From Hormiphora californensis (Eukaryota > Animalia > Ctenophora): a DNA stretch of 64,000 nucleotides. The notes under the pieces were generated by a model that saw nothing but the letters and a program-made list of their open reading frames with translations, made no database searches and was not told where the DNA came from. Shown piece after piece: positions 14,424 to 53,784 of this stretch (its first letter is position 1; each line of letters starts with the position of its first letter). A program made the translations under genes and the position numbers. The DNA lies in assembly GCA_020137815.1 (NCBI GenBank), contig CM035356.1, positions 5,022,001-5,086,000 on the forward strand, written 5' to 3'.

Positions 14424-15813
14424 AGAATACAGTAGATTGGATGAAATTGAATACTGTCGAGAAAGGATTTATTAAAATTGTGTTACAGAGGGGTTGAAGC
14501 TGTTTTTGGGGAATTTTTTATTTACTAATACCGGATGATATATATCAGGGATTTATTTACTCCGCGTTTTAAAAGATTAATGTTCAATAAACTGGCTTAT
14601 TAATTTGTTAATTTATCTTCTGTTAACACCCGTACAAAAACACCGTCTTTATTTTGGTATTATCTTGATAAACGTAAAACACCTGTACCTACCAGTAAAA
14701 TAGGGAGAGGAAGGGCTTTTGGGAAGCGTTCAACATGCTAACATTGTGGGAGCCGTATCGCCTGCAGAGAGTGAGATGTAACGCGCGACTCGCTAATCTT
14801 GTGGCGCGCAATGAAAGCAAGACATCGTAGGCCAAAGTTAAATGCGCGCCCCCCGCTTTTTTGCTCCAGGATCTTGGCATGGGCAAAAGTTCAAAATTGA
14901 CATGTGGCATGTTCCCAGTCGGTGACTGGTGAGAATCTCACACGTCACAGTGAGGGTGTGGTTGACATGAAAAGAATTAAAAGGCATAGTGCAACTGCTC
15001 ATTGTTCTCCCTATTATATCGAAAAATCGGGTTTTTAAACACTATCTGCCCCTGTTTTGTGCGCGGCGTTGTATTTGCGCGTGCCAAGTAAATACTCGCG
15101 CGCGGCAATAATGGCCTGGATTCTATTTATTCATATCACGCCGCGTTTTTTAGTGCTGGGTGTTGAAACTCGAAAGGGAAGGTTCCGCCTTTGAAAGGCG
15201 GCCTTTCGCTTCACACCCTTACACCACACCGAAGCTGCAGGATGACATTCATTTCAATATACATCAAGTGTGATACCCCTACATAGCGCCCCATCGGTGA
15301 TACCAGTTCTGGCCGAATGCCGATCATCACTTCCACAGCTCAGTTCCCGCTTTAGGTAACTGCTGAAGCTCTAAGCCTCTCAGCCTTGTAGGATATATAC
15401 ATAATAATAATAATAATAATAATAACTATGTTTATATTCCGCCCATATCCGACAGGGACAGAGCAGCGGAACTGCTGCTGTCACTGAAGGATGATCTGAA
15501 CGGTTAATATACTGGTAAGACCTCGCAAACTTATCCCTAATAGAACAAAAAATAATAAAGAAAAAAATACACCGGCTCACATTACTATCGGCTCACATAA
15601 CTATCGGTGACTGAATACATAACAGACTGAGTTAGAGTCCTGGAACTCTAAAAAATGATATAAAAGTCCGTAGATTGGAAACACAGAAAAACACTCGTGC
15701 TATGAAAAACCCCAATTTATGCTTCACTCTTCTGCTCGCCACGAGCTATAATACAGAAAAACAATTAAAAACGGGTACCAGCCAGAGCACATACCTCAGC
15801 AAGAAGGAGAGTG

Positions 15814-18789
15814 TTAAGAGGACAGTCCAGTCTCACCAAAAGCCTCAGTGAAAAGACTAGTCTTGAGCTTAGACTTGAAAGATTCCACAGACTCAACAGC
15901 TCTCAGATCAAGGGGAAGCCTATTCCAGACTTCAGGTAGGTAAACCGACGGGCGTCTTCTTCTCAACTTGGAAGTCGCATTGACACTTGATAGCTTAGGG
16001 TACTTCAGCTTGAGGCCATCAGGCCAAGCATTTCCTCTAGTAGCCCGGATCACATGAAGTCCATCATCAACAGGGACCTGATCTTGCAGGTAGTCAGGGG
16101 CCAATCCATGTACAATCTTGTACGCCATGAGGCATGCTTTGAACGTGACTCGTTGTTCCACAGGAAGAACATGCAACTCTTTCAAGTATGGCATGTAGGT
16201 GTCTTGGTGACCGTATAGGCCATAAACAAATCTGACACACGAGTTCAAGACTCTCTGAAGGCTGTTGAGAAGCTTATTAGGTAAGCCATGGTAAAGGACA
16301 TTACAATAATCCAATCTTGAAATGATGAGCTGCTTAACAAGGAGTATCTTGGTCGATTTATCCAGACATCGGTTTACCTGCCATAGATTCTTCAAAAGCA
16401 AACCACATTGTTTCTTAACACTGTTGATTTGTCTCTCCATTGAGAGGTTGCTATCAAGGAACACTCCTAGTGTTTTTCCTGCATTACCCGTAAAGTCCAC
16501 TGGGCTTATCTCCACTCCACCAAAGTCCACAGTGGGCTGATACACCATCTTATCCAGGGCACTGTTTTTGCCTAACAGCAGGAATTCAGTCTTTGCCTCA
16601 TTGAACTTTAGCCAGTGCTCACTCATCCACTCTTTCACACTTGACAAGCATTCCTCAGTCCTCTCCTTTGCCAGGTTCCAGTTTTCCTCATCAGTTGGTA
16701 CAAAGCTGATGTACAATTGCGAGTCATCAGCATAAAGTTTAATCCTCAAGCCATAAGGTTTGACCAAATCTTGCAATTCCTCCACATACAGTAAAAACAA
16801 CACAGGTCCAAGCAGTGAACCCTGCGGAACTCCACAAATCAGAGAGACAATCCTCGAAAGTTCCCCTTCCACGTTTACCCGATAAGTCCTCATTTGTAGA
16901 TAGTTGGCGAACCAATCCAAGACAGAACCCCTCACTCCAAACCGTTCTTCAAGAACTTCTAGCAGCTTTCCATGGTCCACTGTGTCAAAAGCGGCGCTCA
17001 TATCTAATAGAAAGAGGCCTGCGACCTTTCCTTCATCCATATCCCGAAGGAGATCATCAAACATACCCATCAGTAGGGTTTCACAGCTATGATTCACCCT
17101 GTAACCTGATTGATGCTTATTTAGTAACTCGTTCTCATTTAGATACGAGTTGAGCTGCTCTAGAACTATCTTTTCCAGAAGTTTGGAGACAAAAGATAGG
17201 TTGGAGACTGGCCGATAATTGGTCAAAGTGTCTTTATCGCCATAAGGGTTCTTAATCGTGGGAAACACCAAAGCTTGCTGGAGAAGTTCAGGAACACTGG
17301 AACATCCAAGAGATAGGTTAATAAACCTGCACAAGACTGGAGCTAGCTCATGCATACACCCCTTCACTAACCAAGTCGGTATAGGGTCAAGATCACATGT
17401 CTTGTCTGGCATGTCTTTGATTATCCTCTTTAGTTTCTCTGGGGAAACTTCCTCAAATTCCTCAAAACAACAGACGGGTGTCTGATGAATAGGGTTCCTC
17501 TTGGTCCTCAGATTCTTCTCTCCAATAACAGTAGACCGGATCTTATCAACTTTTCCAACAAAGAAGTCCGCAAAGTCATCCGCTAACCTCTGCTTATCTG
17601 TGGTTTCAGGCATAAAGGTCTCAGTATTACCAAGTAGACGGTTCAGTTTCCTTTGAAGGGCTTTAGGGTCATCTCTGGACTCCTCCAAGTCTTCCTTGAC
17701 GTATTTCGTCCTCGCTTCCTTGTCAACACGCCCAAACTGCCTCTTGAGTTCATTGAACTGCTTCTTCGTGACGCTGGTTTTATTGTTCTCCCAGGCTCGC
17801 TCAGCATTCCGCCGCTGACGAAGAACTTGACGCACCTCTGGATTATCTCTCCATGGCCTCAGCTTAGCTCCTCTCTTCTTTCTCCTCTTCAACGGGACAG
17901 TCCTATCCACAAGTTCCTCAAGTTTCCTCATATAAATACACAAGACCTCCTCAGCTGATCCAGATTCCATCGCTTCACTCCAATCCACACTCCTAAAAGC
18001 ACATCGAAGTATTTCAATATCAACAGCCTTGAAATCTCTGTACATGTCCACTTTTTCACGAGTCTTGTATTCACTTGCAACAGTTTCAATACACAGCTCC
18101 GCCAATACAAGAAAATGATCAGAGGTCGTTCCGCCAGGAAATACTTCAACTGATTGAACCTTAGAATATCTGTCTTTTTGGCAGAGAAGCAGATCCAAAG
18201 TACCACCACGAACATGAGTAGGTTGTAGTGGGACCCGCTGATCAAATCCAAGAGAGTCAAGTAGTCCAAGCAACTTCTTCGCATAGAAGTTCTGAGTATC
18301 TTGAACCTGGAAGTTAAAGTCCCCCATCAGGATAGGGTTCCCCGTTTTGCAGACCAACTCTGACAAATAATCAGTAAACTCATCCAAGAACTGGGCTTCC
18401 GTAAACCGTGCCTTGCCAGTATACGGAGGTCTATAGATATTGCACAGCCTCGTGACATCTTTTCCTCCTCCAATAAGGGCTTCCTGGACTTGAAACGATT
18501 TAAACTTGGCTTTTACCGGAGTGTATTTCAACTTGACACCATCCCTGTACAAGATTCCAATTCCACCTCCTGAACGTTCCGCTCTAGGCGAGGAGAAGAT
18601 ATTCCAACCATAGTCTCTGATCTCCTGAAGTTTAGCTGTGTCACTCTGTTTCAGATAAGTCTCCTGTACCAAGCAGATGTCGCATCCTTTTTCCTCCAAG
18701 TGTGTAATTACACCTGACGTTTTATTCATAATAGAATGGACGTTTAGTGTGCCAATCCTCCAAGACGTTTTCCTCTCAGATCCTCCCAT
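15814..18789 (-). CDS. LINE ORF2: AP endonuclease + reverse transcriptase (991 aa, intact)
   Basis: APE motifs LNV, VQET, IYRPP, MGDFN, TLDL, SDH. RT motifs NYRPVSNL, HQSGYR, LDMSAAFDTV, GVPQGSLLGP, YADDSQLY. Confidence 0.95.
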   Translation of the reverse strand: MGGSERKTSWRIGTLNVHSIMNKTSGVITHLEEKGCDICLVQETYLKQSDTAKLQEIRDYGWNIFSSPRAERSGGGIGILYRDGVKLKYTPVKAKFKSFQVQEALIGGGKDVTRLCNIYRPPYTGKARFTEAQFLDEFTDYLSELVCKTGNPILMGDFNFQVQDTQNFYAKKLLGLLDSLGFDQRVPLQPTHVRGGTLDLLLCQKDRYSKVQSVEVFPGGTTSDHFLVLAELCIETVASEYKTREKVDMYRDFKAVDIEILRCAFRSVDWSEAMESGSAEEVLCIYMRKLEELVDRTVPLKRRKKRGAKLRPWRDNPEVRQVLRQRRNAERAWENNKTSVTKKQFNELKRQFGRVDKEARTKYVKEDLEESRDDPKALQRKLNRLLGNTETFMPETTDKQRLADDFADFFVGKVDKIRSTVIGEKNLRTKRNPIHQTPVCCFEEFEEVSPEKLKRIIKDMPDKTCDLDPIPTWLVKGCMHELAPVLCRFINLSLGCSSVPELLQQALVFPTIKNPYGDKDTLTNYRPVSNLSFVSKLLEKIVLEQLNSYLNENELLNKHQSGYRVNHSCETLLMGMFDDLLRDMDEGKVAGLFLLDMSAAFDTVDHGKLLEVLEERFGVRGSVLDWFANYLQMRTYRVNVEGELSRIVSLICGVPQGSLLGPVLFLLYVEELQDLVKPYGLRIKLYADDSQLYISFVPTDEENWNLAKERTEECLSSVKEWMSEHWLKFNEAKTEFLLLGKNSALDKMVYQPTVDFGGVEISPVDFTGNAGKTLGVFLDSNLSMERQINSVKKQCGLLLKNLWQVNRCLDKSTKILLVKQLIISRLDYCNVLYHGLPNKLLNSLQRVLNSCVRFVYGLYGHQDTYMPYLKELHVLPVEQRVTFKACLMAYKIVHGLAPDYLQDQVPVDDGLHVIRATRGNAWPDGLKLKYPKLSSVNATSKLRRRRPSVYLPEVWNRLPLDLRAVESVESFKSKLKTSLFTEAFGETGLSS

Positions 18790-20033
18790 GCCCTCGTCAG
18801 GTACACGTTTTTTTTCTGCTTTGTTACTCCACTGGTACTCTCCATGAGTCTTCCTTTAGCATTTACATAGAATGGACACATACTGCTGGAGGCTGGGTGA
18901 CTTTGAGCATGGCGCTTATCCTCTCTGCTTCCTCCATGATCACAGTTGACACATTTCATCCTGCTCACTACATTTTCCTTCTTGGCATGGCAACTCCTCG
19001 TGTCATGATCTCCCGTACAGAAGGCACAAACCGGAGATTTATCCTTGTTTGGGCAGTAGATGGATCCTGCTACATGGCCAAAGCGCTGACAGTGGAAACA
19101 CTGCGTGACATAAAACCTGTTCCTCACTGAATGCTGTCGAAGTTTCAAGAATAGCTTGTCCTTCCTTTCTGATATCGCCTTCCTCACTTCCGGAGAGACC
19201 TGAAACACTGCATATCTTCCTGTTCTGTTTACATGGACCACCTTCACCAGGTGACCCTCCTAAACTAGTCTCTTCACAGATTCATTCTTATCACTGACAA
19301 TCTCTGACAGAAGGCGATCTTTTTCCAGCAGGTCTTGGTCAAGATCATTGATCATGATGCGAGGATCTCTTTTCTTCTCCTTCTCTACTACAGGAGAAAC
19401 ATCAAGGAACGGTGAAAGAACTTCTTTCGCCTGTTCCAACTGTTCATCGGTCTCAAACATAAGATTTGTCCTCCTCTTGGTGACTGAAAGATCTAGGACT
19501 GGAATCTTATTCAATGCTTTCTCCACCTTTGTCTTCACGACAGTAGTCCACTTCTTCTCACACATAGGTCCTTCCTCACCTTTATCCTTGATAGTCAGAT
19601 ACCTCTTAATTGGAGTCACAGGTGTCACAGTTTCCTGTGCTGAGCCAATGCGATTCACAGCGTGAATAGCCAATTGGTCGCTGCCAGGAGCTAAGATCTT
19701 GCTAACCTTGGGGGCAACCAGATCCGGTAGTGTGCTCAGAAGATCCTCTTTCAGCTTATCCAGTGTATCCTTCAAGTCTTCAGCTGTGAATGATGTCACA
19801 GATTCAGATGAGTGGGTAGAGATGCGTCGTGTTTCTGGTAACAATCCATATAGTTCCTTGACCATCGTCCATAAAACCGCTTTGGAAGCTCCAGTTGGAG
19901 GTTCCACTGCGTCATCCTTAATGCTCTGCAAAATACTGGCACCCTTACATCTATCAGAGTAGCTCGTGGCGAGCAACTTACCCTCCATATCGTTCCTGCA
20001 CATTATAACATCATGGGTAGCCACACCCGACAT
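18744..20033 (-). CDS. LINE ORF1 (gag-like, three CCHC knuckles) interrupted by one in-frame TAG at 19262-19260
   Basis: Track ORFs 19260-20033 and 18744-19247 are in the same frame (KRLV*EGHLVKVVH). Knuckles: CFHCQRFGHVAGSIYC, CAFCTGDHDTRSC, CVNC...H...C. Overlaps ORF2 by 46 nt. Confidence 0.85.
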
Positions 20034-20220
20034 CCTGTCCTGTAAATAGAGGCGCGAGGAACCGTTCCTTGCAAGTCTTGGCGTCCTTGGTTATAACCCA
20101 ACGAGGTCCTCTGAGATCTGTTTACTTAGAAAAACCAGACACGTCTTCTCTTGTCTTTTCTTTAAGGAGAGGGATAAACAGAAGTCTCAGAAGGATTAGC
20201 GAGGGGCAGCAAAACGGATC

Positions 20221-20248
20221 CTCAAATTAATTTGTTTAAAGTAGTGTT
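20221..20248 (-). other. Spliced-leader exon sequence AACACTACTTTAAACAAATTAATTTGAG at the LINE 5' end
   Basis: Read directly from the minus strand. Matches the 3' 28 nt of the ctenophore SL as I recall it. Followed by GATCCG, not a GT donor, so this is not an SL RNA gene. Confidence 0.8.
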
Positions 20249-20471
20249 AGTCATATGACTAATGACTAATTTATATATGTCTATAGTGTGAGAGCGGGAA
20301 GAGTTACTTATATAACTCTATTATAAATGTTGAAGTTCATTTTCATTTTCATTTCTATTCCAGTATTTTCGATACCTAATTATCAACATTTTTCTCAATA
20401 TGTAGGTGCTAAGATATCTTAGGAAACTGTTCTTCAGTACCTCAGTTAAGCAAGTGCACCATAAAAAGACA

Positions 20472-20664
20472 AAAGTTCAAAAGTGCAACACATCCAAGAG
20501 CGCACCACATCCAGAAGATAGCACATTCAAGAGCGCACCACATCCAGAAAAGACCACTCTAAGGGAGTTCCCCTCCCAAAAGGTACCGCTCTTAGAGTAG
20601 TCTCTTCTGGGTATGGTTTGTTCTTTGATTTGGTCTCTTCTGGATGTGGTGCTCTTTGAACTTT
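20472..20664. mobile_element. Small MITE-like inverted repeat with subterminal repeats
   Basis: aaagttcaaa...agagcgcaccacatccagaa versus ttctggatgtggtgctctttgaacttt. Confidence 0.45.
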
Positions 20665-21737
20665 ACCATGGTTCATCCTAAAACACCTGGCTCACACCTT
20701 AATCCTGTAAATTTTATTGCATTACCCAAACACAGCTTTCGCATATTTCATTAATGCATTCATATATTATGAACGTGCGTCATGCAGTGCTGAAACGCTA
20801 TTCAAGTATTCCGTTTTCCAATTAGTCAGAACATCTAAATTAAAAATTCCCTCGGATCAGATCCAAAAATTAAAATACTTGATTTTATAGGGTCCACAGC
20901 TAGGAAAACTAGCCTTGCTCGACCCTGTTTACAAGTGTAAACTATCTGGCATCTGCTATATAACATTACCCCAATTGGCCAATAAGAGGTCACGCCTATC
21001 CGGCTGTTAGTTGTGAATTGTGATGCTAATATAATATTAATATATCGATTCAGCAATGTAATCTGTCATCCAATCAGAGCTCTCACTGGCTCCTATCCTC
21101 CCATTATGTGTCATGATCTTTCATGGCTCTACGCGTTTAGTGAGACAGACCGCATGTCAAATTGCGAAATTCCTTCTTTCGTGTTCATGTCTGTTCCTCT
21201 CTCAGAGTAAGACTGCAGTACGCTGTGCTTCTTAGAACACGCGGTCCCTTCGTAATTTGTTTAGACTCTCTGATTATGACTCCTTTGGCATGAACATGTA
21301 CTATTGTGTTCTGTAATAATCTCTCTATGTGTATATACAAATCAAACAATTCCCCCAGCAATTATCACGCTTTTATAATTATCTTGGGTGGGGAAATTAT
21401 GTGTAATCTTTTTATTTCCTGTAATTAGGTATCCCTGTTTCATTGTTGTAGTATAATATTAGTAAATTAGTATTATCATACGTACGCGTTTTCATCAAAA
21501 CAAGCTAGAATATTTCTGTATCATTTAGTCATGATCAGTTGTTAATTGCAGGGCAGTTGTTTGTTGATCGGTTTTGTCATATAATTAGTAAACAGCCGCA
21601 ATTTCTGTGTTGAAGATGATCACGATCTATTAATTATTTTGATATTTTTCGTTTATATACCTCTCTCTCTTTCTCCTTCTTTTGAATGACGGTGTATGCC
21701 ATTATTTATGTTCCCATTTCTGTTTGTTTTATAGTTA

Positions 21738-22010: not shown

Positions 22011-22219
22011 ATCACTCTATAGTAAGAGGTATCACTGCATCTAAATAATTGCACTATTATAGGTAGTAGCCTAGTTGAATCTAAATTACTAACATTGTTA
22101 TAACATTGAATATAGGATAGAAGGATGGGCTACAACATACACAATGGACATTGCAACATTACTGGAAGTTATCCCCTATCTGACCTGTGCCTAACAGACA
22201 TTATTAGTGTAAGTAGCTG

Positions 22220-25200
22220 TACAATATCCAAGTTAATAGTCAGGATGGACTCGTTAGAGAAGAGAGTCGAGGAGATACCCCGAGAGAGGATGCCGAGTTC
22301 GGAATCGATAAATCCATCCCAATTCCAAAAGGTACCTATCCCTCAACCTCAACCGTTCCTGAATCCGTGGCAGGCGTGGAATGCCCCACGCCAGTTCGCT
22401 CAACCTGCATGTTACTAAATGCCGGCGGCTTTAATCCAGGAGCAAACAGTAACACTAGGTGGAAAAGAGATGTCCTATGTCAGGAGTTAATCAGCCTCAA
22501 TGAGAAGGGTGTTAATGTGCCCTTTATTGGTATCACTGAGTCCTGGCTAAAGGATTTCCATCTAGATGCCCAAGTTGCTATTCCTGGGTATGCTGTTGTA
22601 CGTGCAGACAGGTCAAACCGGCAGGGTGGTGGGGCGCTACTCTATGTAGATGAGGGTATCCCAATGGAATGGTCATCTAGCTTTGATGACGGGAGGTGTC
22701 AAGCACTGTTTTGCAGATTTTCCTCGTGTTCTATGAGCGTTGCTGTGATCTACCGACCCCCTGATACACCATCCTCAAGTTTTATTAACTCCCTCGATTT
22801 CTTGAAAAAACAGATAGAGAGAATAGACCCAGGTGACGATTTAGTTATCATGGGTGACTTTAATCTTCCGGTCATCAACTGGGATACTATACATATAGGT
22901 GGTAGGTCTGCTGAGAATACCCGGTCGGCTCAGGCGTTGCTAGAGTTTATGGGATCTAATTTTCTAGAACAGTTTGTTAACCTACCTACTAGGGGTTCAA
23001 AATATACTCGACCTGTTCTGTCTAAACCGGGAGAGTTGAGTGGAAACTGTGAGGGTAGTGGTGACCACATCGATCGATTTCTGATCAATAAGTTGGTATT
23101 ATAGTATGATCACTTTCCATTCCAGTCTGCCCGAAACGAAACAGAGAAGGAGAGGAGAATCAAGCCAAGAGTCTTTTCGATATGGATCTTTCATAACGCG
23201 ATTTTGATACTTCTCCGTGAGGAAACTCTAGTGAGTGAAGGAGTATGATTGGGTTGGTCTAAGAAAGGACTACTGATTTTTTGAATCATTTCCCTACGGT
23301 TTTTTCAAGGATACGATTTACAAGTATGCTGTTGGTGGTCTTCCCGAAGGTGAAGTTCCTCGTGGAGACCAATTGTTTTAACAAGTACGAGACGAATAAG
23401 AAAAGAAAAAATAAGATGTCGGATACGTGCTATGTTAGGAAGGGTAGATTGCCACGGAGCTGAGGAGTTATCAGATGAGCTCTCCAGGTGTGATTAGAAA
23501 TCGAGAACGAGTCTTGGCCAGAAAGGGACCAGCATGAGAGGCGGGAGTGGGACAAGATTAAAATTGACCCCACTGATTCTTTACTCCTTTGCGAAAATGT
23601 TTGCAAAAAGGTTGATCCAGTATCCCTGTTATCACGGATATTCACTGGAAAAAACAACCATCTGACACTAACGAAGAAATTGCCCGAATCTCGTTCAAAA
23701 TCAATTCTGCAGTGTGTCAGTAACCCAGCAACCCCATACCCAGGATCCGGCTTTGAATGCCCGGTTAGTAAATTGGAAGACTGGGGGAATCAACGCTGAG
23801 GAGACGACATTATCAAAGCGTGTAAGGATCTGGTGACAACCTCCTCTCCAGGACCTGATGGTGTTCCTGCAAAGATCCTGAAAGAGGCTGCGGAGGCTCT
23901 GTCAGTACCCATTGGCCTTATTTGGAGAGAATCTATGGACCTGAGAGTAGTGCCCGAGTTTTACAAGATGGGCTATGTAGTCCCCCTGTTTAAGAAAGGC
24001 GATAGATCTTCTCTGAAAAATTACAGACCTTGTACTGACAAGCCCATGTGATCAAGATTCACGAGCGAATCATGAGGGAAAACATTTGGTGTAATTATGC
24101 GAGCGTAAGGGGATCATAATCCAAAGAGTCAGCACGCTTCAGAGCGGGGAGGGTCCACACTGACCCAATTATTGGGACCACTTCGGACGGGTGATTAAAA
24201 CGACCTATGTGATGGGAAACGACACAGACACAGGTCTACCTGGACGATTCCCTGGCCTTCGACAAGGTTAGAAATAACGGCTCCTCTCTCAGATCAGAAG
24301 ATATGGAGTTGCATTCCACAGATTGTGGATGGGCTGGAGGTCTGCTGTCTGGCCGGAAACAAACGGTGTGTTAGAAGGGTTTCATCAGTAATAGCAGTAA
24401 TCATCCGCGGGTCCTCAGGGCCGGTGATGGGCCCCTCTTGATTTCTTGATATTTCTGAATTGATTTGAAGGGTGAAGTGCGTGATGCCCTTCGAAGCTTC
24501 TTTGCGGATGGACTCCAGCAGTGGGCATGGAAATCTATGATAAGAGGAGTGATCGCGAGAAGTTACAGAAAGACTTGGATCGTGTGCATCATTGGGCTGA
24601 AAGAATAGATATTGAAGCTCAATAAGAGAAATATGAGTTAATGTGCATCAGTCACAATCGCTCATCTCTCATGAAACACATTGCGGTGTCTGCGGGGTTG
24701 GTGTACTAATGACACTAGTGGTGGGAGAGAGCCTTCTACCAATTCATGATAGCTCAGAGACTGGGGCCGTTACAGTCTGAAGATCTCTCCTGGAGGCCGC
24801 ATTATGTCAATTCTGACCCACAAGAGGCAGAAGAATTTCCCAGGGATACCAGCGTTTTTAGTGCAGAGATACAGTCCTCATGATACACTCTCTATAAGAA
24901 GCCTAGGGAGCAAAATGGGAGTATTGCTCTCCGCTGTGTGCCCCCAATTGGGCGGTGACATTAAAGCTCCTTGAATCGGTCAAAGAAGTTTACTGCCAAG
25001 ATTTCTGGTCTTCAGGACAGTGACTACTGGGAAACGCCTAATAAAATCTTGGACTCATGTCATGTACAAAGGAGCGTGAAAGGTCACTCCATCTGAACAT
25101 GCACAATATTCGACAGTGAAGCAGTACCAAATGATGTCAATGTGCCTTTCTACCGACATACGACGGAATGGGGAAGGCGGTTGGATACCTGATATGCAAG

Positions 25201-25480
25201 GGTCAAGAGCAAGAGCATACTCCCTGCCTCTATAGCTCATTCATTTGGCTCAGTGGGTCCTAGGCTGTGGGGGAATTCATTGCCAAATCGACATTCGAAG
25301 AAATTGCAATCAGGCTGGCTGAATTTAAGGCGCGACCGGATAGCTTTCCTTAGTGAAGTGCCGGACCTACCGCCCTACACCCGGGTACTCATCACAGAAG
25401 AAAACTCACTGAGAGAGTGGTGCTTGGATATCCGGAACGATAAATGTGGAGGGTCAGTGGAAGGAATGGCCCTCTGAGTG
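22220..25480 (+). mobile_element. Frameshifted CR1/L2-group LINE (ORF1 tail + APE-RT remnants)
   Basis: APE motifs GITESWL, RADR..RQGGG, IYRPP, MGDFN. RT-linked SPGPDGVP and KKGDRSSLKNYRP. Broken AFDKV, PQG and FAD motifs further on. Confidence 0.85.
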
Positions 25481-50330: not shown

Positions 50331-51719
50331 CAAGACACAGCACACAAGAAATCTGAAGTTCAAATGGGGATATGTTCAGAGAACAGTTCCAGACATTGGA
50401 ACGCTCTTCAAGCCCCTGGAGGACATTATTAGACACGAGCTGATCCCGGTTCTACTAGGCACCCACGTAAATGATCAGCAACGCTGCTTGTTGGCTCTAC
50501 CGGTCAGAATGGGCGGACTAGGTTTGGACAACCCTGTCGAAACTGCGAACCATGCTTACACCCACTCCAGATTTTGCACAGAACCGTTGGTCAACCACTT
50601 ACTGTCTGAAGAAATCCATGATCATGCAGTTGTCGCTCGACTAGACAAAGCCGTTTCTGAGAAGATTACAGAGTGTGAGCTAGCCACCAAAACCAGACAT
50701 CAAGCAAACTTCAAGATCATCCACACAATGATGGATAGTTACGGCCAGCGTCTTCTAGCTCTCAACACTGAACCAGGAGCATCCTCATGGCTAACAGCTC
50801 GGCCAATCGATAGTCTTGGTTACGAACTCACGAAGCAGGAATTCCATGACGCTATGCGCCTAAGATTCGGACTTCACTTCCCTGATCTTAACCTCCGATG
50901 TGCATGCGGTAAGGACAACGATGTAAACCACGCCCTCAGTTGTGCCAAAGGAGGATACACTATCATGAGACACGACAAGATCCGAGACGCTACAGCTGAA
51001 ATTCTCAGCTATGCAGGTGTGAAAGGAGTAGAGACTGAACGACTCCTGCAACCTTGTGATGACTTTGCCGAAAGGCTCCCACATTGGACAAATCAAGATA
51101 GGGATGCCCGTATGGACATTGTCGGAACCGGATTGTGGCAGCCCGAACAACTGAACTTCTTCGATGTCAGAGTTGTCCATGCCAATTCTGCATCATATCT
51201 CTCAACACCTCCAACATCTCTGTACAGAGACCATGAACAGAGGAAGAAGAGAAGCTACATGAGGAGAGTACAGATGGTGGAAGGGGGCTCATTCACCCCT
51301 CTGATAATGTCAACTACAGGAGGACTCGGAGACGAATTCATGAAAACCCTGAAGAAAGCTGCCTCAAGGATTGAGGAAAAACACGGAGAAAGATATCCAG
51401 AGGTAATGGCTACAATAAAGCAAAAGTTGAGATTCTCCATCCTTAGGTCAACTTTGAGGAGCTTGAGAGGTTGTAGGGTACCCATAAGAACACCAACACT
51501 GGACAATTTTGACTTCAACCTTTGAAATGTCATTAGTGATGAGAGACTATTTTTATATTATTTATCAATTTTTTAGTGTGTAGGCGTTTGATTAAGTTTT
51601 TTTTCTGCACAACCCACACAGGGACCATATGATGACTTGATTCACACCTCACCGTGTCTAGTGGCTGCTCTGCACCGTTTCACCCCTGAGGTCCCTAGTG
51701 GGTTGTGTTTATATAAATC
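50331..51719 (+). mobile_element. 5'-truncated CRE-clade non-LTR retrotransposon (RT thumb + CCHC + restriction-like endonuclease)
   Basis: Frame is open from about 50345 (KWGYVQRTVPDI...LPVRMGGLG) to 51525. Motifs GASSWL, EFHDAMRLRFG, CACG..NHALSC.KGG...RHD, RMDI...FFDVRV and EQRKKRSY. Candidate 11-bp TSD gacacagcaca at 50320-50330 and 51720-51730. Confidence 0.88.
51620..51696 (+). ncRNA. Box C/D snoRNA-like module in the CRE 3' UTR
   Basis: Terminal stem AGGGACC/GGTCCCT. Box C ATGATGA at 51629-51635, two nt after the stem. Box D CTGA at 51686-51689, abutting the stem. Outer 10-bp stem cacaacccac/gtgggttgtg. Confidence 0.6.
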
Positions 51720-51978
51720 GACACAGCACAGACGTTTTTTGGATTTCATTTGTATTTTTGAAATTTAGGCTCTTCTTCGCCGTTCGCGCCCTCACGTCCT
51801 CTAACCTCCTCTAGTCGTCTATGACTAATGGCATAGGCCATGCAAACTATTTGGTACAAATAAGTTTACAACTTTTTCAGTTTTTAACTTTTTTCCAGGG
51901 TTTCGACGCTCAACGGAGTGCGGTTTCCCCGTCTTGGGTACCCATTCTAAACATAAAATGTTTCCTTTAGGATGCTCA

Positions 51979-53784
51979 ATGGTTGAATATGTTCTTTGTT
52001 TGTTCCTGAGCCTCACATCACTCGCCCTCACCTCCGAACTCTACCCCTATCTTGACCGGGATGCAATACCAACCCATGAGGCCCCAGGAGGCTATGAGTC
52101 ATTTGAGGTTGCCCAACAAAACAGTGCAACTTCTCCCCCAACTGTCAAGATATTTACTGACGATGTAGCTGGTTCAAATCCACACCGGTTCGCTTATGGC
52201 CACATGGCAGTGATATCCAACCCTCGTGATACACTCTCAATCTATGAACCGAGTGGTAACGACTCGTGCACTGCTCAACCTTGGACGAAACAGCGACTGT
52301 TGACGAAAACCGCTGCTACTCATAACTGTATTTACGCTACGAACGGCGGATTTTTCAACACTACAACGGGAAACTGTCTTGGTAACATGGTCAGCGAGGG
52401 GAGGTTGGTTGTGAATGGACAAGGAATCATGAATCCAAATTTTGGTGTTCTGAAAAATGGGACGATAGTTGTAGGATACCTGTCTGAAGAACATGTCCTG
52501 GGCTGGGATTTCCAAACTCTCGTCCAAGGAATTATTTGGTTGGTTCGAGATAGCAGGAACCATGTTGAAGAGTCGATTGAAATAGAGAGCGGGGACATGC
52601 AGACAACTGGCAATCTAGAGGGTTTTGTGAGTGTCGTCTCTGCTCGAACCGCTATCGGCCACGATAAGGATGGCAATGTGCTATTGTTACATGTGGAGGG
52701 CAAGACTTGGTCCCGGGGAATTAACTTGCGTGAATTCGCTGATTTGTTGGTTGTGCACGGGTTTGTTAATGCTGTTAATCTGGATGGTGGGAGCAGTGCT
52801 ACAGTTGCATATAACACTACCCTGATCAACTACCCCTCGGAGCATTGTCCAACAGAGGGAGGTGCGTACAGGTGTGAGCGGGCTCTCTCCTCCATCCTAT
52901 GTGTGCACGCTGAGTGTGAGTGTGAACATGGGACATGTGTACATAACGTGTGTGAGTGTGATGAAGGGTGGCAGGGAACTAGTTGTTCAGACCCCATAAC
53001 ATGTCCTCTAGACTGCTCTGAACACGGGGTGTGTACTACCCAGGGATGTTTGTGTAACCCTGGTTACCTCGGATCAGGATGCCAGGTCACCTGCCCAGAA
53101 GGATCCTTTGGGGAAGAGTGTGGCAGGGAGTGTAACTGCGTGTACGGGAGTTGTGATGCTGTCCACGGAGCCTGCACCTGTTTTGCGGGTTGGACGGGTG
53201 TTAACTGTAACTCAGCGTGCCCCAATAATACCTGGGGCCGGGAGTGCAAGCAGGCGTGTACAGCGTGCAGTGAGCACGGTGTATGCGACCCTAAGACAGG
53301 AGAGTGCCTGTGTGCAGCAAGCTGGCAGGGCAAGATCTGCCAAGTATACCGGGGAACATATCACTTTATAAACGGGTTACCATCGCGGGATTTCGGGATT
53401 CTAGCTGTTCTCATTGCTCTGGTTGCCATTGTGCTAGTGTCCATGAGCGTTAATGTGTATTACTGCCTCAAGTACAAGAACTATAAAAAATCCCGGAGAT
53501 CTCGGGGAGGGGCCAGCAGTAGAAACCACAACACTAACTCAACCTCCCGCTCCCCTAAACTACCATCCGTGTCATTGTCCCCTTTGGAACACACCAAGCG
53601 GCAGATACCGATCTTTAGAGAGCTGCAGAATGGGGGACAGCACGCAGGTAGGGAGGTGATGGAATCTGCTAATGGGGGTCAACACACAGGGAGGGAGGTG
53701 CTGGAAATGATTGAGAGAGTACAAAATGAACAAGATAGTGAGGGGAGTGATGCTGCAGATACTACGGCACTTCTTAAAACTTAA
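51979..53784 (+). CDS. NAGPA: N-acetylglucosamine-1-phosphodiester alpha-N-acetylglucosaminidase (uncovering enzyme), single coding exon
   Basis: Signal peptide MVEYVLCLFLSLTSLA (ATG at 51958 is an alternative start). Motifs ATNGGFF, CLGNMVSEG, SARTAIGHD, RGINLREFA and NAVNLDGGSS. EGF repeats, a TM helix and a cytosolic tail follow. Confidence 0.92.
   Translation: MVEYVLCLFLSLTSLALTSELYPYLDRDAIPTHEAPGGYESFEVAQQNSATSPPTVKIFTDDVAGSNPHRFAYGHMAVISNPRDTLSIYEPSGNDSCTAQPWTKQRLLTKTAATHNCIYATNGGFFNTTTGNCLGNMVSEGRLVVNGQGIMNPNFGVLKNGTIVVGYLSEEHVLGWDFQTLVQGIIWLVRDSRNHVEESIEIESGDMQTTGNLEGFVSVVSARTAIGHDKDGNVLLLHVEGKTWSRGINLREFADLLVVHGFVNAVNLDGGSSATVAYNTTLINYPSEHCPTEGGAYRCERALSSILCVHAECECEHGTCVHNVCECDEGWQGTSCSDPITCPLDCSEHGVCTTQGCLCNPGYLGSGCQVTCPEGSFGEECGRECNCVYGSCDAVHGACTCFAGWTGVNCNSACPNNTWGRECKQACTACSEHGVCDPKTGECLCAASWQGKICQVYRGTYHFINGLPSRDFGILAVLIALVAIVLVSMSVNVYYCLKYKNYKKSRRSRGGASSRNHNTNSTSRSPKLPSVSLSPLEHTKRQIPIFRELQNGGQHAGREVMESANGGQHTGREVLEMIERVQNEQDSEGSDAADTTALLKT

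Follow-up and report, generated by a model that had tools for sequence, protein, structure and literature searches.

A clade of ctenophore LINE retrotransposons appears to be copied from RNA whose 5′ end was supplied by spliced-leader (SL) trans-splicing, with the leader likely re-added over successive rounds of copying; we place the probability of this reading at roughly 70%. The element on which the analysis centers lies in a 64,000-nt stretch of Hormiphora californensis DNA, referred to here as the window, and its first bases are the 3′ part of the host's spliced leader. Retroposition of SL-spliced transposon RNA is an idea already in print for flatworms. Added here are an empty insertion site that lacks the leader, clade-wide evidence that the leader is renewed, a YAG triplet ahead of the ORF1 start codon in 23 of 23 elements, and a predicted, covarying helix between ORF1 and the 3′ UTR.

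Architecture and classification of the window element

The element is a non-LTR retrotransposon of 4.85 kb that runs along the minus strand from position 20248 to approximately 15401. Its 5′ end, which we call the head, consists of the 3′-terminal 28 nt of the 44-nt spliced-leader exon (20221–20248). The placement of this 28-mer in the initial annotation is confirmed: it reads from 20248 to 20221, abuts GATCCG with no GT behind it, and stands 187 nt ahead of the ORF1 ATG at 20033. The intervening 5′ UTR (20034–20220) contains no upstream ATG and no Sm-like motif, and its fold is unremarkable (z = −1.13). ORF1 (18744–20033) comprises 429 codons and is predicted to encode two RRM-like domains of the ferredoxin fold together with CCHC zinc knuckles. 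ORF2 (15814–18789), which overlaps ORF1 by 46 nt, is intact and encodes a 991-residue protein with an APE endonuclease and a reverse transcriptase (RT). The 3′ UTR (15401–15813) terminates in a (TTA)8 tail (15425–15401). The element had been described as a full-length LINE, and it is indeed complete, but codon 258 of ORF1 is a stop in the window copy (19262–19260). All aligned contigs of sequencing runs X3, X5, and X8 have a different letter at position 19262; either the ORF1 of this copy is broken or the assembly is in error at the stop.

The zinc knuckle of ORF1 is recognized by Pfam (zf-CCHC_6, E = 8e-5), and 34 homologs of the protein were found. A structure model of an ORF1 relative with 66% identity (mean pLDDT 72.7) contains the two RRM-like domains, and Foldseek matched the model to tandem-RRM and ferredoxin-fold proteins with low TM-scores. 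Comparison of the ORF1 profile with PDB sequences returned nonsignificant matches only, nucleocapsid knuckles among them. In ORF2, Pfam identifies RVT_1 (E = 8e-30) and an N-terminal APE domain (Exo_endo_phos, E = 7e-13) and matches no RNase H family; a homologous ORF2 is found in Pleurobrachia bachei.

As a rule, LINEs of the CR1 group have tandem repeats at their 3′ end. Two traits of this group are present in the window element, namely an ORF2 with APE endonuclease and RT and a 3′ end of short tandem repeats instead of poly(A), and the RT motifs have what we take to be an L2-like look. The earlier placement in the L2/CR1 group fits the domain content of ORF2 and the (TTA)8 tail, and it is an assignment by features rather than by an RT tree. 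In its passages on the CR1 group, PMC13343379 includes L2, Crack, Daphne, and Kiri and describes poly(A) as unique to Zenon; the window element shares with these LINEs the APE and RT domains of ORF2, the upstream ORF1, and a tail other than poly(A). The vertebrate CR1-group ORF1 described there is of the esterase type, whereas the window ORF1 is predicted to combine RRM-like domains with CCHC knuckles.

The window also holds a second LINE on the plus strand at about 22116–25470. This copy is decayed, with an APE domain and frameshifts, and a scan of the window detected no leader-like head on it. An uninterrupted 608-residue ORF at 51958–53784 (plus strand) encodes NAGPA (phosphodiester glycosidase) and EGF domains, and a 338-residue ORF at 50509–51525 (plus strand), without a Pfam match at E 0.01, is possibly a fragment of a mobile element.

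The head is the 3′ part of the ctenophore spliced leader

The 44-nt leader of H. californensis is printed in PMC8527503, and the head of the window element matches its last 28 nt exactly. When up to three mismatches are allowed, the 64 kb contain a single occurrence of a 24-nt part of the head, against an expectation of zero from 100 shuffles. Run X22, which is taken as RNA (a guess), carries organism label A, and runs with this label hold most of the window. One contig of X22 supplies the 16 nt missing from the head, plus one G. In total, 470 contigs of this run aligned, with depth almost solely in the leader bin and with differing sequences downstream, so that the leader is found on the 5′ ends of many unrelated host RNAs. 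The identification of the head as the 3′ part of the ctenophore SL is thereby borne out by both the printed leader and the X22 RNA contig. The accompanying proposal that the template had been reverse-transcribed to its cap fails for the window copy, whose leader is 5′-truncated to 28 of 44 nt: because the first 16 nt are absent, copying of this element ended 16 nt before the cap.

The head does not belong to an SL RNA gene, in agreement with the initial annotation, given that GA follows the exon, that no Sm-like motif is present, and that no SL family matches in Rfam. Among the 23 elements considered below, the window element included, GT follows the head in only 5, and an Sm-like motif (RAT4-6GR) is absent in all 22 heads tested. 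Rfam, searched at E values up to 5, returned six weak matches (miRNA and lncRNA), with no ribozyme or SL family among them. Release by HDV-type ribozymes is known for LINEs such as R2 and L1Tc. No HDV-like ribozyme was found at the 5′ end by Rfam or by fold z score, a search that a divergent ribozyme could escape.

The leader arrived with the element

An empty-site allele is represented in DNA run X5 by a contig in which 15378 and 20262 are connected through 14 intervening letters (depth 297), and flank contigs of the same run have a similar depth (181–268). This allele contains neither the leader nor an SL gene, and the target of the insertion is a short AT repeat. Because the leader is missing from the empty site, it must have arrived with the element, and the window element was not inserted into an SL RNA gene. 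When the filled allele is set against the empty-site joint (15378→20262), a scar is apparent at the 5′ junction (20247–20270, no strand assigned). It is composed of a perfect 16-nt palindrome (20247–20262), in which target sequence recurs in inverted orientation, and of 7 nt that are directly duplicated. The insertion has no obvious target-site duplication, at most about 1 nt of the AT repeat. Joints at 15084→20632/3 in run X3 were considered as insertion-related and are read as unrelated repeat matches.

Two further observations concern the upstream flank. Approximately 250 nt upstream of the leader, 20499–20655 forms an imperfect palindrome with 74-nt arms that resembles a MITE and recurs at other places in the read sets. 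At 20672–20697 (minus strand), a 26-nt stretch exactly repeats the sequence across the boundary between 5′ UTR and ORF1 in the sister family L004; the match extends over 24 nt in L006 and L007 and stands alone in the flank.

CRE and SLACS elements also target SL genes. NeSL-type elements, which carry a restriction-like endonuclease, insert into the SL gene according to the relevant passage of PMC4640811, and in all three groups, as here, a non-LTR element lies beside a leader exon. Insertion targeted to the exon end of SL RNA genes would have the geometry that we observe at the joint. It is refuted for the window copy by the leaderless empty site and is barely credible for the clade, given that the length of the leader varies from 28 to 43 nt, that 12 upstream flanks are mutually unrelated (top z 2.5 among 66 pairs) with no Sm-like motif, and that the endonuclease is of the APE type. 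The distinction from NeSL and CRE elements drawn in the initial annotation holds, because the ctenophore LINE has an N-terminal APE domain, no restriction-like endonuclease, and an empty site without the leader.

The leader joint is the standard 5′ end of the family

In run X3, a single 144-nt contig (record 11) spans the UTR and the leader with 0 differences at a depth of 1486. Flank contigs in this run have depths of 52–57 and element-body contigs depths of 776–963, so that the junction contig has about twice the depth of the adjoining UTR/ORF1 contig (1486 versus 776). In run X8, which has another organism label, record 31 covers the same joint with 0 differences at a depth of 2256 versus about 30. 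Contig depth is not copy number, and contigs drop rare forms, so that a leaderless source copy could be missed; within this limit the depths suggest tens of copies with a common leader–UTR joint. The joint is the majority, or standard, 5′ end of the family. Sister forms in X3 (records 10, 12, and 13; depth 452–580) have the leader joined to other UTRs, and none of the 13 loose ends listed, out of 19, has another sequence at the joint.

A rare X5 contig (depth 12) has the leader joined after a different AG of the same UTR (20076→20221), which is a weak hint of AG-directed joining. An oligo-dT RNA contig from run X18 (depth 9) covers the leader, the UTR, and the start of ORF1 and may be DNA carry-over. 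Run X22 contains no element-body contigs, and neither an unspliced precursor nor a branched intermediate was seen in the read sets.

Leader-like heads occur on every 5′-complete relative

An ORF1 profile built from 27 proteins led to 35 metagenome loci, of which 33 are true relatives, L034 and L035 having been excluded ahead of this count as short, knuckle-only matches. A match in prokaryote genomes (L036) is a spurious zinc-knuckle match rather than a relative, and viral contigs gave no match to the joint, the leader, or ORF2. Of the 33 relatives, 22 have a leader-like head that ends in TGAG and lies 98–210 nt ahead of the ORF1 ATG; these are all of the relatives that reach the start of the UTR. 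None of these 22 has a non-leader 5′ extension. The 11 headless loci comprise seven contigs that begin inside ORF1 or the UTR and four 5′-truncated insertions, which have no leader. Taken with the majority contigs, these 22 heads support a leader that is family-wide and clade-wide and not the one-off event that had been considered as an alternative.

Six of the 22 heads are identical to that of the window element, 15 are variants, and one (L018) consists of 6 nt at a contig edge. The heads were chosen by eye and tested afterwards against that of L002 (43 nt). In 20 of 23 rows, the window included, the highest-scoring local alignment to L002 ends where the joint had been placed. In comparisons with 500 shuffles, 10 variant heads beat all shuffles, 1 was matched by 2 shuffles, and 4 scored weakly, being matched by 6–23; the 6-nt head of L018 was not significant. 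G directly follows the joint in 18 of the 23 elements, as in the consensus at a splice acceptor. The leader carries a TGAG motif in both Hormiphora and Mnemiopsis (PMC8527503), and the 15 variant heads, which end in this motif, are candidate leaders of their hosts. Seven copies have a Hormiphora-type leader, five of them with 40–43 nt and two with 28 nt. In these last two, the window element (20221–20248) and L007 (85–112), which are unrelated copies, the leader is cut off after exactly 28 of its 44 bases, and reverse transcription may pause at this site.

The initial annotation had raised the prospect that full-length copies start at the SL with different SL variants or with stacked relics of older leaders. 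Variant heads are seen, but stacked relics are not: the UTR contains no second relic in any of 22 elements (best score 20 of 40; L018 excluded), and none was found in upstream flanks, which were testable in 16 of 22.

U6–L1 chimeras provide a precedent for joining at integration. The leader could likewise have been added at that step, either by a switch of template or by ligation of RNA, with a free leader exon or the 5′ end of another mRNA as the partner, and the templated filler at the 5′ junction lends this account some support, as it implies that strand transfers occur at that end. We nevertheless consider it highly improbable. In the majority contigs the joint does not vary on the element side, the best alignments end exactly at the exon end in 20 of 23 cases, and the four 5′-truncated copies lack a leader altogether. 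The RNA that served as template for reverse transcription was very probably SL trans-spliced.

The leader is probably renewed from the host

Several comparisons bear on whether the leader is renewed or inherited. Between the window element and L004–L008, the leader is identical at 25 of 25 positions, whereas UTR identity (0.46–0.51) is at the shuffle baseline (0.49 ± 0.035) and ORF1 is 44–48% identical. Similarly, L025, L031, and L033 have 46–49 nt of the head exactly in common at an ORF1 identity of 24–34%. The sister elements L012 and L014 present the reverse pattern: their UTRs agree at 168 of 176 positions and their heads at only 20 of 26 (Fisher p = 0.004, uncorrected), with the TGAG joint as the point of change. 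A significant excess of head change is found in only one of four close pairs; L018 was left out of pairwise counts.

Head types, which were named before the trees were viewed, fail to group as clades in trees of ORF1 or of the endonuclease. In AU tests, a single clade for elements with a common head type was rejected for three groups (p = 6e-59, 4e-6, and 0.007); the endonuclease trees omit L004 and L007, whose ORF2 is short, and the AU tests omit L001 as well. One clade of L014, L017, and L019 is also rejected (p = 2e-65), a result that we set aside because L019 looks recombinant or chimeric. In this element, the UTR and first codons (L019:70–360) are ~90% like those of L012, L014, and L017, and ORF1 and the endonuclease group with L011, so that L019 represents either 5′-end recombination between families or a chimeric contig. 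The seven Hormiphora-type elements form a single clade (100/100) and by themselves are no proof of head exchange.

Identical heads beside UTRs at shuffle level, together with head types that do not follow the trees, point to repeated renewal by trans-splicing, and we judge it probable that the leader has been renewed from host SL RNA repeatedly. A leader captured once or a few times could instead be inherited by elements that have an internal promoter, with selection, or exchange of 5′ ends through recombination, holding the head similar to the host leader. The monophyly of the Hormiphora-type heads would be in line with such inheritance, UTRs can outdo ORF1 in conservation, and 5′ ends seem mobile, as in L019 and in L025 and L031, where the UTRs are 79% alike at 27% ORF1 identity. 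If 5′ ends move as blocks, or if these contigs are chimeric, a head could also spread in that way. Inheritance is nonetheless quite improbable, for it has to accommodate perfect identity over 28–42 nt next to UTRs at shuffle level, near-identical UTRs with different heads (L012/L014, p = 0.004), a change of partner at the TGAG joint, and the rejection of head-type clades by the AU tests.

A putative acceptor at the joint and a proposed cycle

All 23 elements have a YAG triplet no more than 15 nt ahead of the ORF1 ATG, versus 8.0 expected, a comparison without a formal probability because the rows are related. In the window it is part of TTTACAG (20040–20046, minus strand), 6 nt ahead of the ATG. 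This second acceptor-like site had been pointed out before; the site is present and its YAG is conserved, but no integrated copy has the leader joined there, the shortest distance from head to ATG being 98 nt. The pre-ATG YAG was therefore ruled out as the acceptor of the integrated form. A 5′ UTR of 98–210 nt is always retained, and since no joint occurs at the YAG, the UTR likely holds something needed in cis. This function is possibly that of a promoter, and we doubt that the element lacks a promoter altogether.

A renewed leader, a fixed joint, and the absence of stacking together place the acceptor exactly at the joint, which in a leader-headed parent is the final AG of the relic itself. 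On the strength of the fixed joint, the lack of stacking, and the exchange of heads between near-identical elements, we lean toward the relic's final AG as the putative next acceptor. In most eukaryotes, GAG is seldom used as an acceptor triplet. This rarity and a possible hidden source copy without the leader are the weak points of this assignment.

In the cycle that we propose, the precursor would start upstream of the integrated relic, either as a read-through transcript or through a promoter within the UTR. The spliceosome would then exchange everything up to the relic's final AG for a new capped leader, which would rebuild the same joint and leave no stacked relic. Target-primed reverse transcription of the leader-spliced RNA by ORF2p would follow and would often end only a few bases from the cap; among the Hormiphora-type copies, copying would have extended to 40–43 of 44 nt in five of seven and stopped at 28 nt in two of seven.

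Hidden source copies might have a native promoter, an outron, and an ordinary acceptor, with the leader-headed copies as dead ends made from their trans-spliced RNA and with rare unspliced RNA seeding new sources. Such sources would explain the exact joint, the host-matched leaders, and the lack of stacking equally well; they require no GAG acceptor, and as rare forms they would be dropped by contigs. We regard them as improbable, because a non-leader 5′ extension is found in 0 of 22 5′-complete relatives and other sequence at the joint in none of the 13 loose ends listed among 19. Moreover, an element that yields almost only dead copies would be expected to lose its acceptor.

A predicted helix between ORF1 and the 3′ UTR

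In the window element, an early segment of ORF1 (+58 to +74; 19960–19976, minus strand) is complementary over 17 bp to the start of the 3′ UTR (15732–15748, minus strand), which predicts a long-range helix. A helix of 12–23 bp is found in all five full-length elements of the clade (the window element, L001, L002, L006, and L008) and is in each case stronger than any of 32–35 other search segments of the same element, the segments having been picked after the match in the window was known. Between the window element and L002, four helix pairs have changed on both sides in a compensatory manner. Outside the clade, an equally clear helix is present in only 1 of 12 elements. Our guess is that this predicted helix closes the RNA from 5′ to 3′.

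In its most far-reaching form, the proposal is that the clade gives 5′-end formation to the spliceosome: there would be no promoter and no ribozyme, the relic would serve as acceptor, read-through transcripts would release capped RNA, and the helix would check both ends. As one joint claim, this version is tentative and unlikely to hold in all its parts.

Relation to known systems

Among the passages most pertinent to our reading, PMC12582326 describes 597 flatworm loci with partial leaders near LTR or LINE elements and suggests retroposed trans-spliced RNA, and PMC5832876 makes the same suggestion for six loci in S. mansoni, leaving misassembly or chimeric assembly open. The flatworm loci likewise have genomic partial leaders beside retrotransposons. 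In these passages the suggestion is made in passing, whereas the ctenophore clade offers an empty site, a fixed family-wide joint, heads on 22 of 22 relatives, and evidence of renewal.

The dinoflagellate retrogenes of PMC12014239 carry leader relics and are described there as having passed from RNA to DNA, been re-expressed, and been trans-spliced again. Retrocopies whose 5′ end carries a leader encoded in the DNA are found here as well. The dinoflagellate cases, as presented in that text, are host genes copied in trans in which a new leader joins inside the relic, so that relics stack; the ctenophore element, in contrast, is an autonomous LINE with a stacked relic in 0 of 22. Transposon RNAs are also SL trans-splicing substrates in Hydra, where about 30% of TE Iso-Seq reads have leaders (PMC12220107), and in Caenorhabditis elegans, where the Cer1 element has SL1 on a short 2.4-kb message and its 8-kb RNA is not trans-spliced at that site (PMC3315495). 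In the passages on Hydra and Cer1, the leader is observed on RNA, whereas in the ctenophore LINE it stands on integrated full-length copies.

Dispersed copies of the leader number 718 in H. californensis and 491 in M. leidyi (PMC8527503). The leader sequence is the same as that studied here, and the passage in question draws no link to retroelements; some of these copies are likely the 5′ ends of LINEs. The passages of PMC7986045 and PMC4558846 bearing on the subject hold nothing further on leader-headed LINEs. Neither leader-headed ctenophore LINEs nor an ORF1–3′ UTR helix in LINEs was found in the literature titles and abstracts searched, a scope outside which subscription journals and Repbase lie.

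Implications

LINEs must rebuild their own 5′ end in every copy, and the solutions known to us are an internal promoter and a self-cleaving ribozyme. If the most far-reaching form of the proposal were true, host trans-splicing would be a third route by which a LINE can obtain its 5′ end. The fixed joint makes reuse of the GAG relic as an acceptor a testable proposition. For ctenophore genomics, dispersed leader copies, present in the hundreds, confound gene annotation, and the clade would likely explain part of them; the heads of these LINEs would in turn document which leader variants occur in ctenophore hosts that have yet to be sequenced. Finally, if the reading is true, the survival of a transposon is tied to the SL machinery, which brings a selfish-DNA angle to the persistence of trans-splicing.
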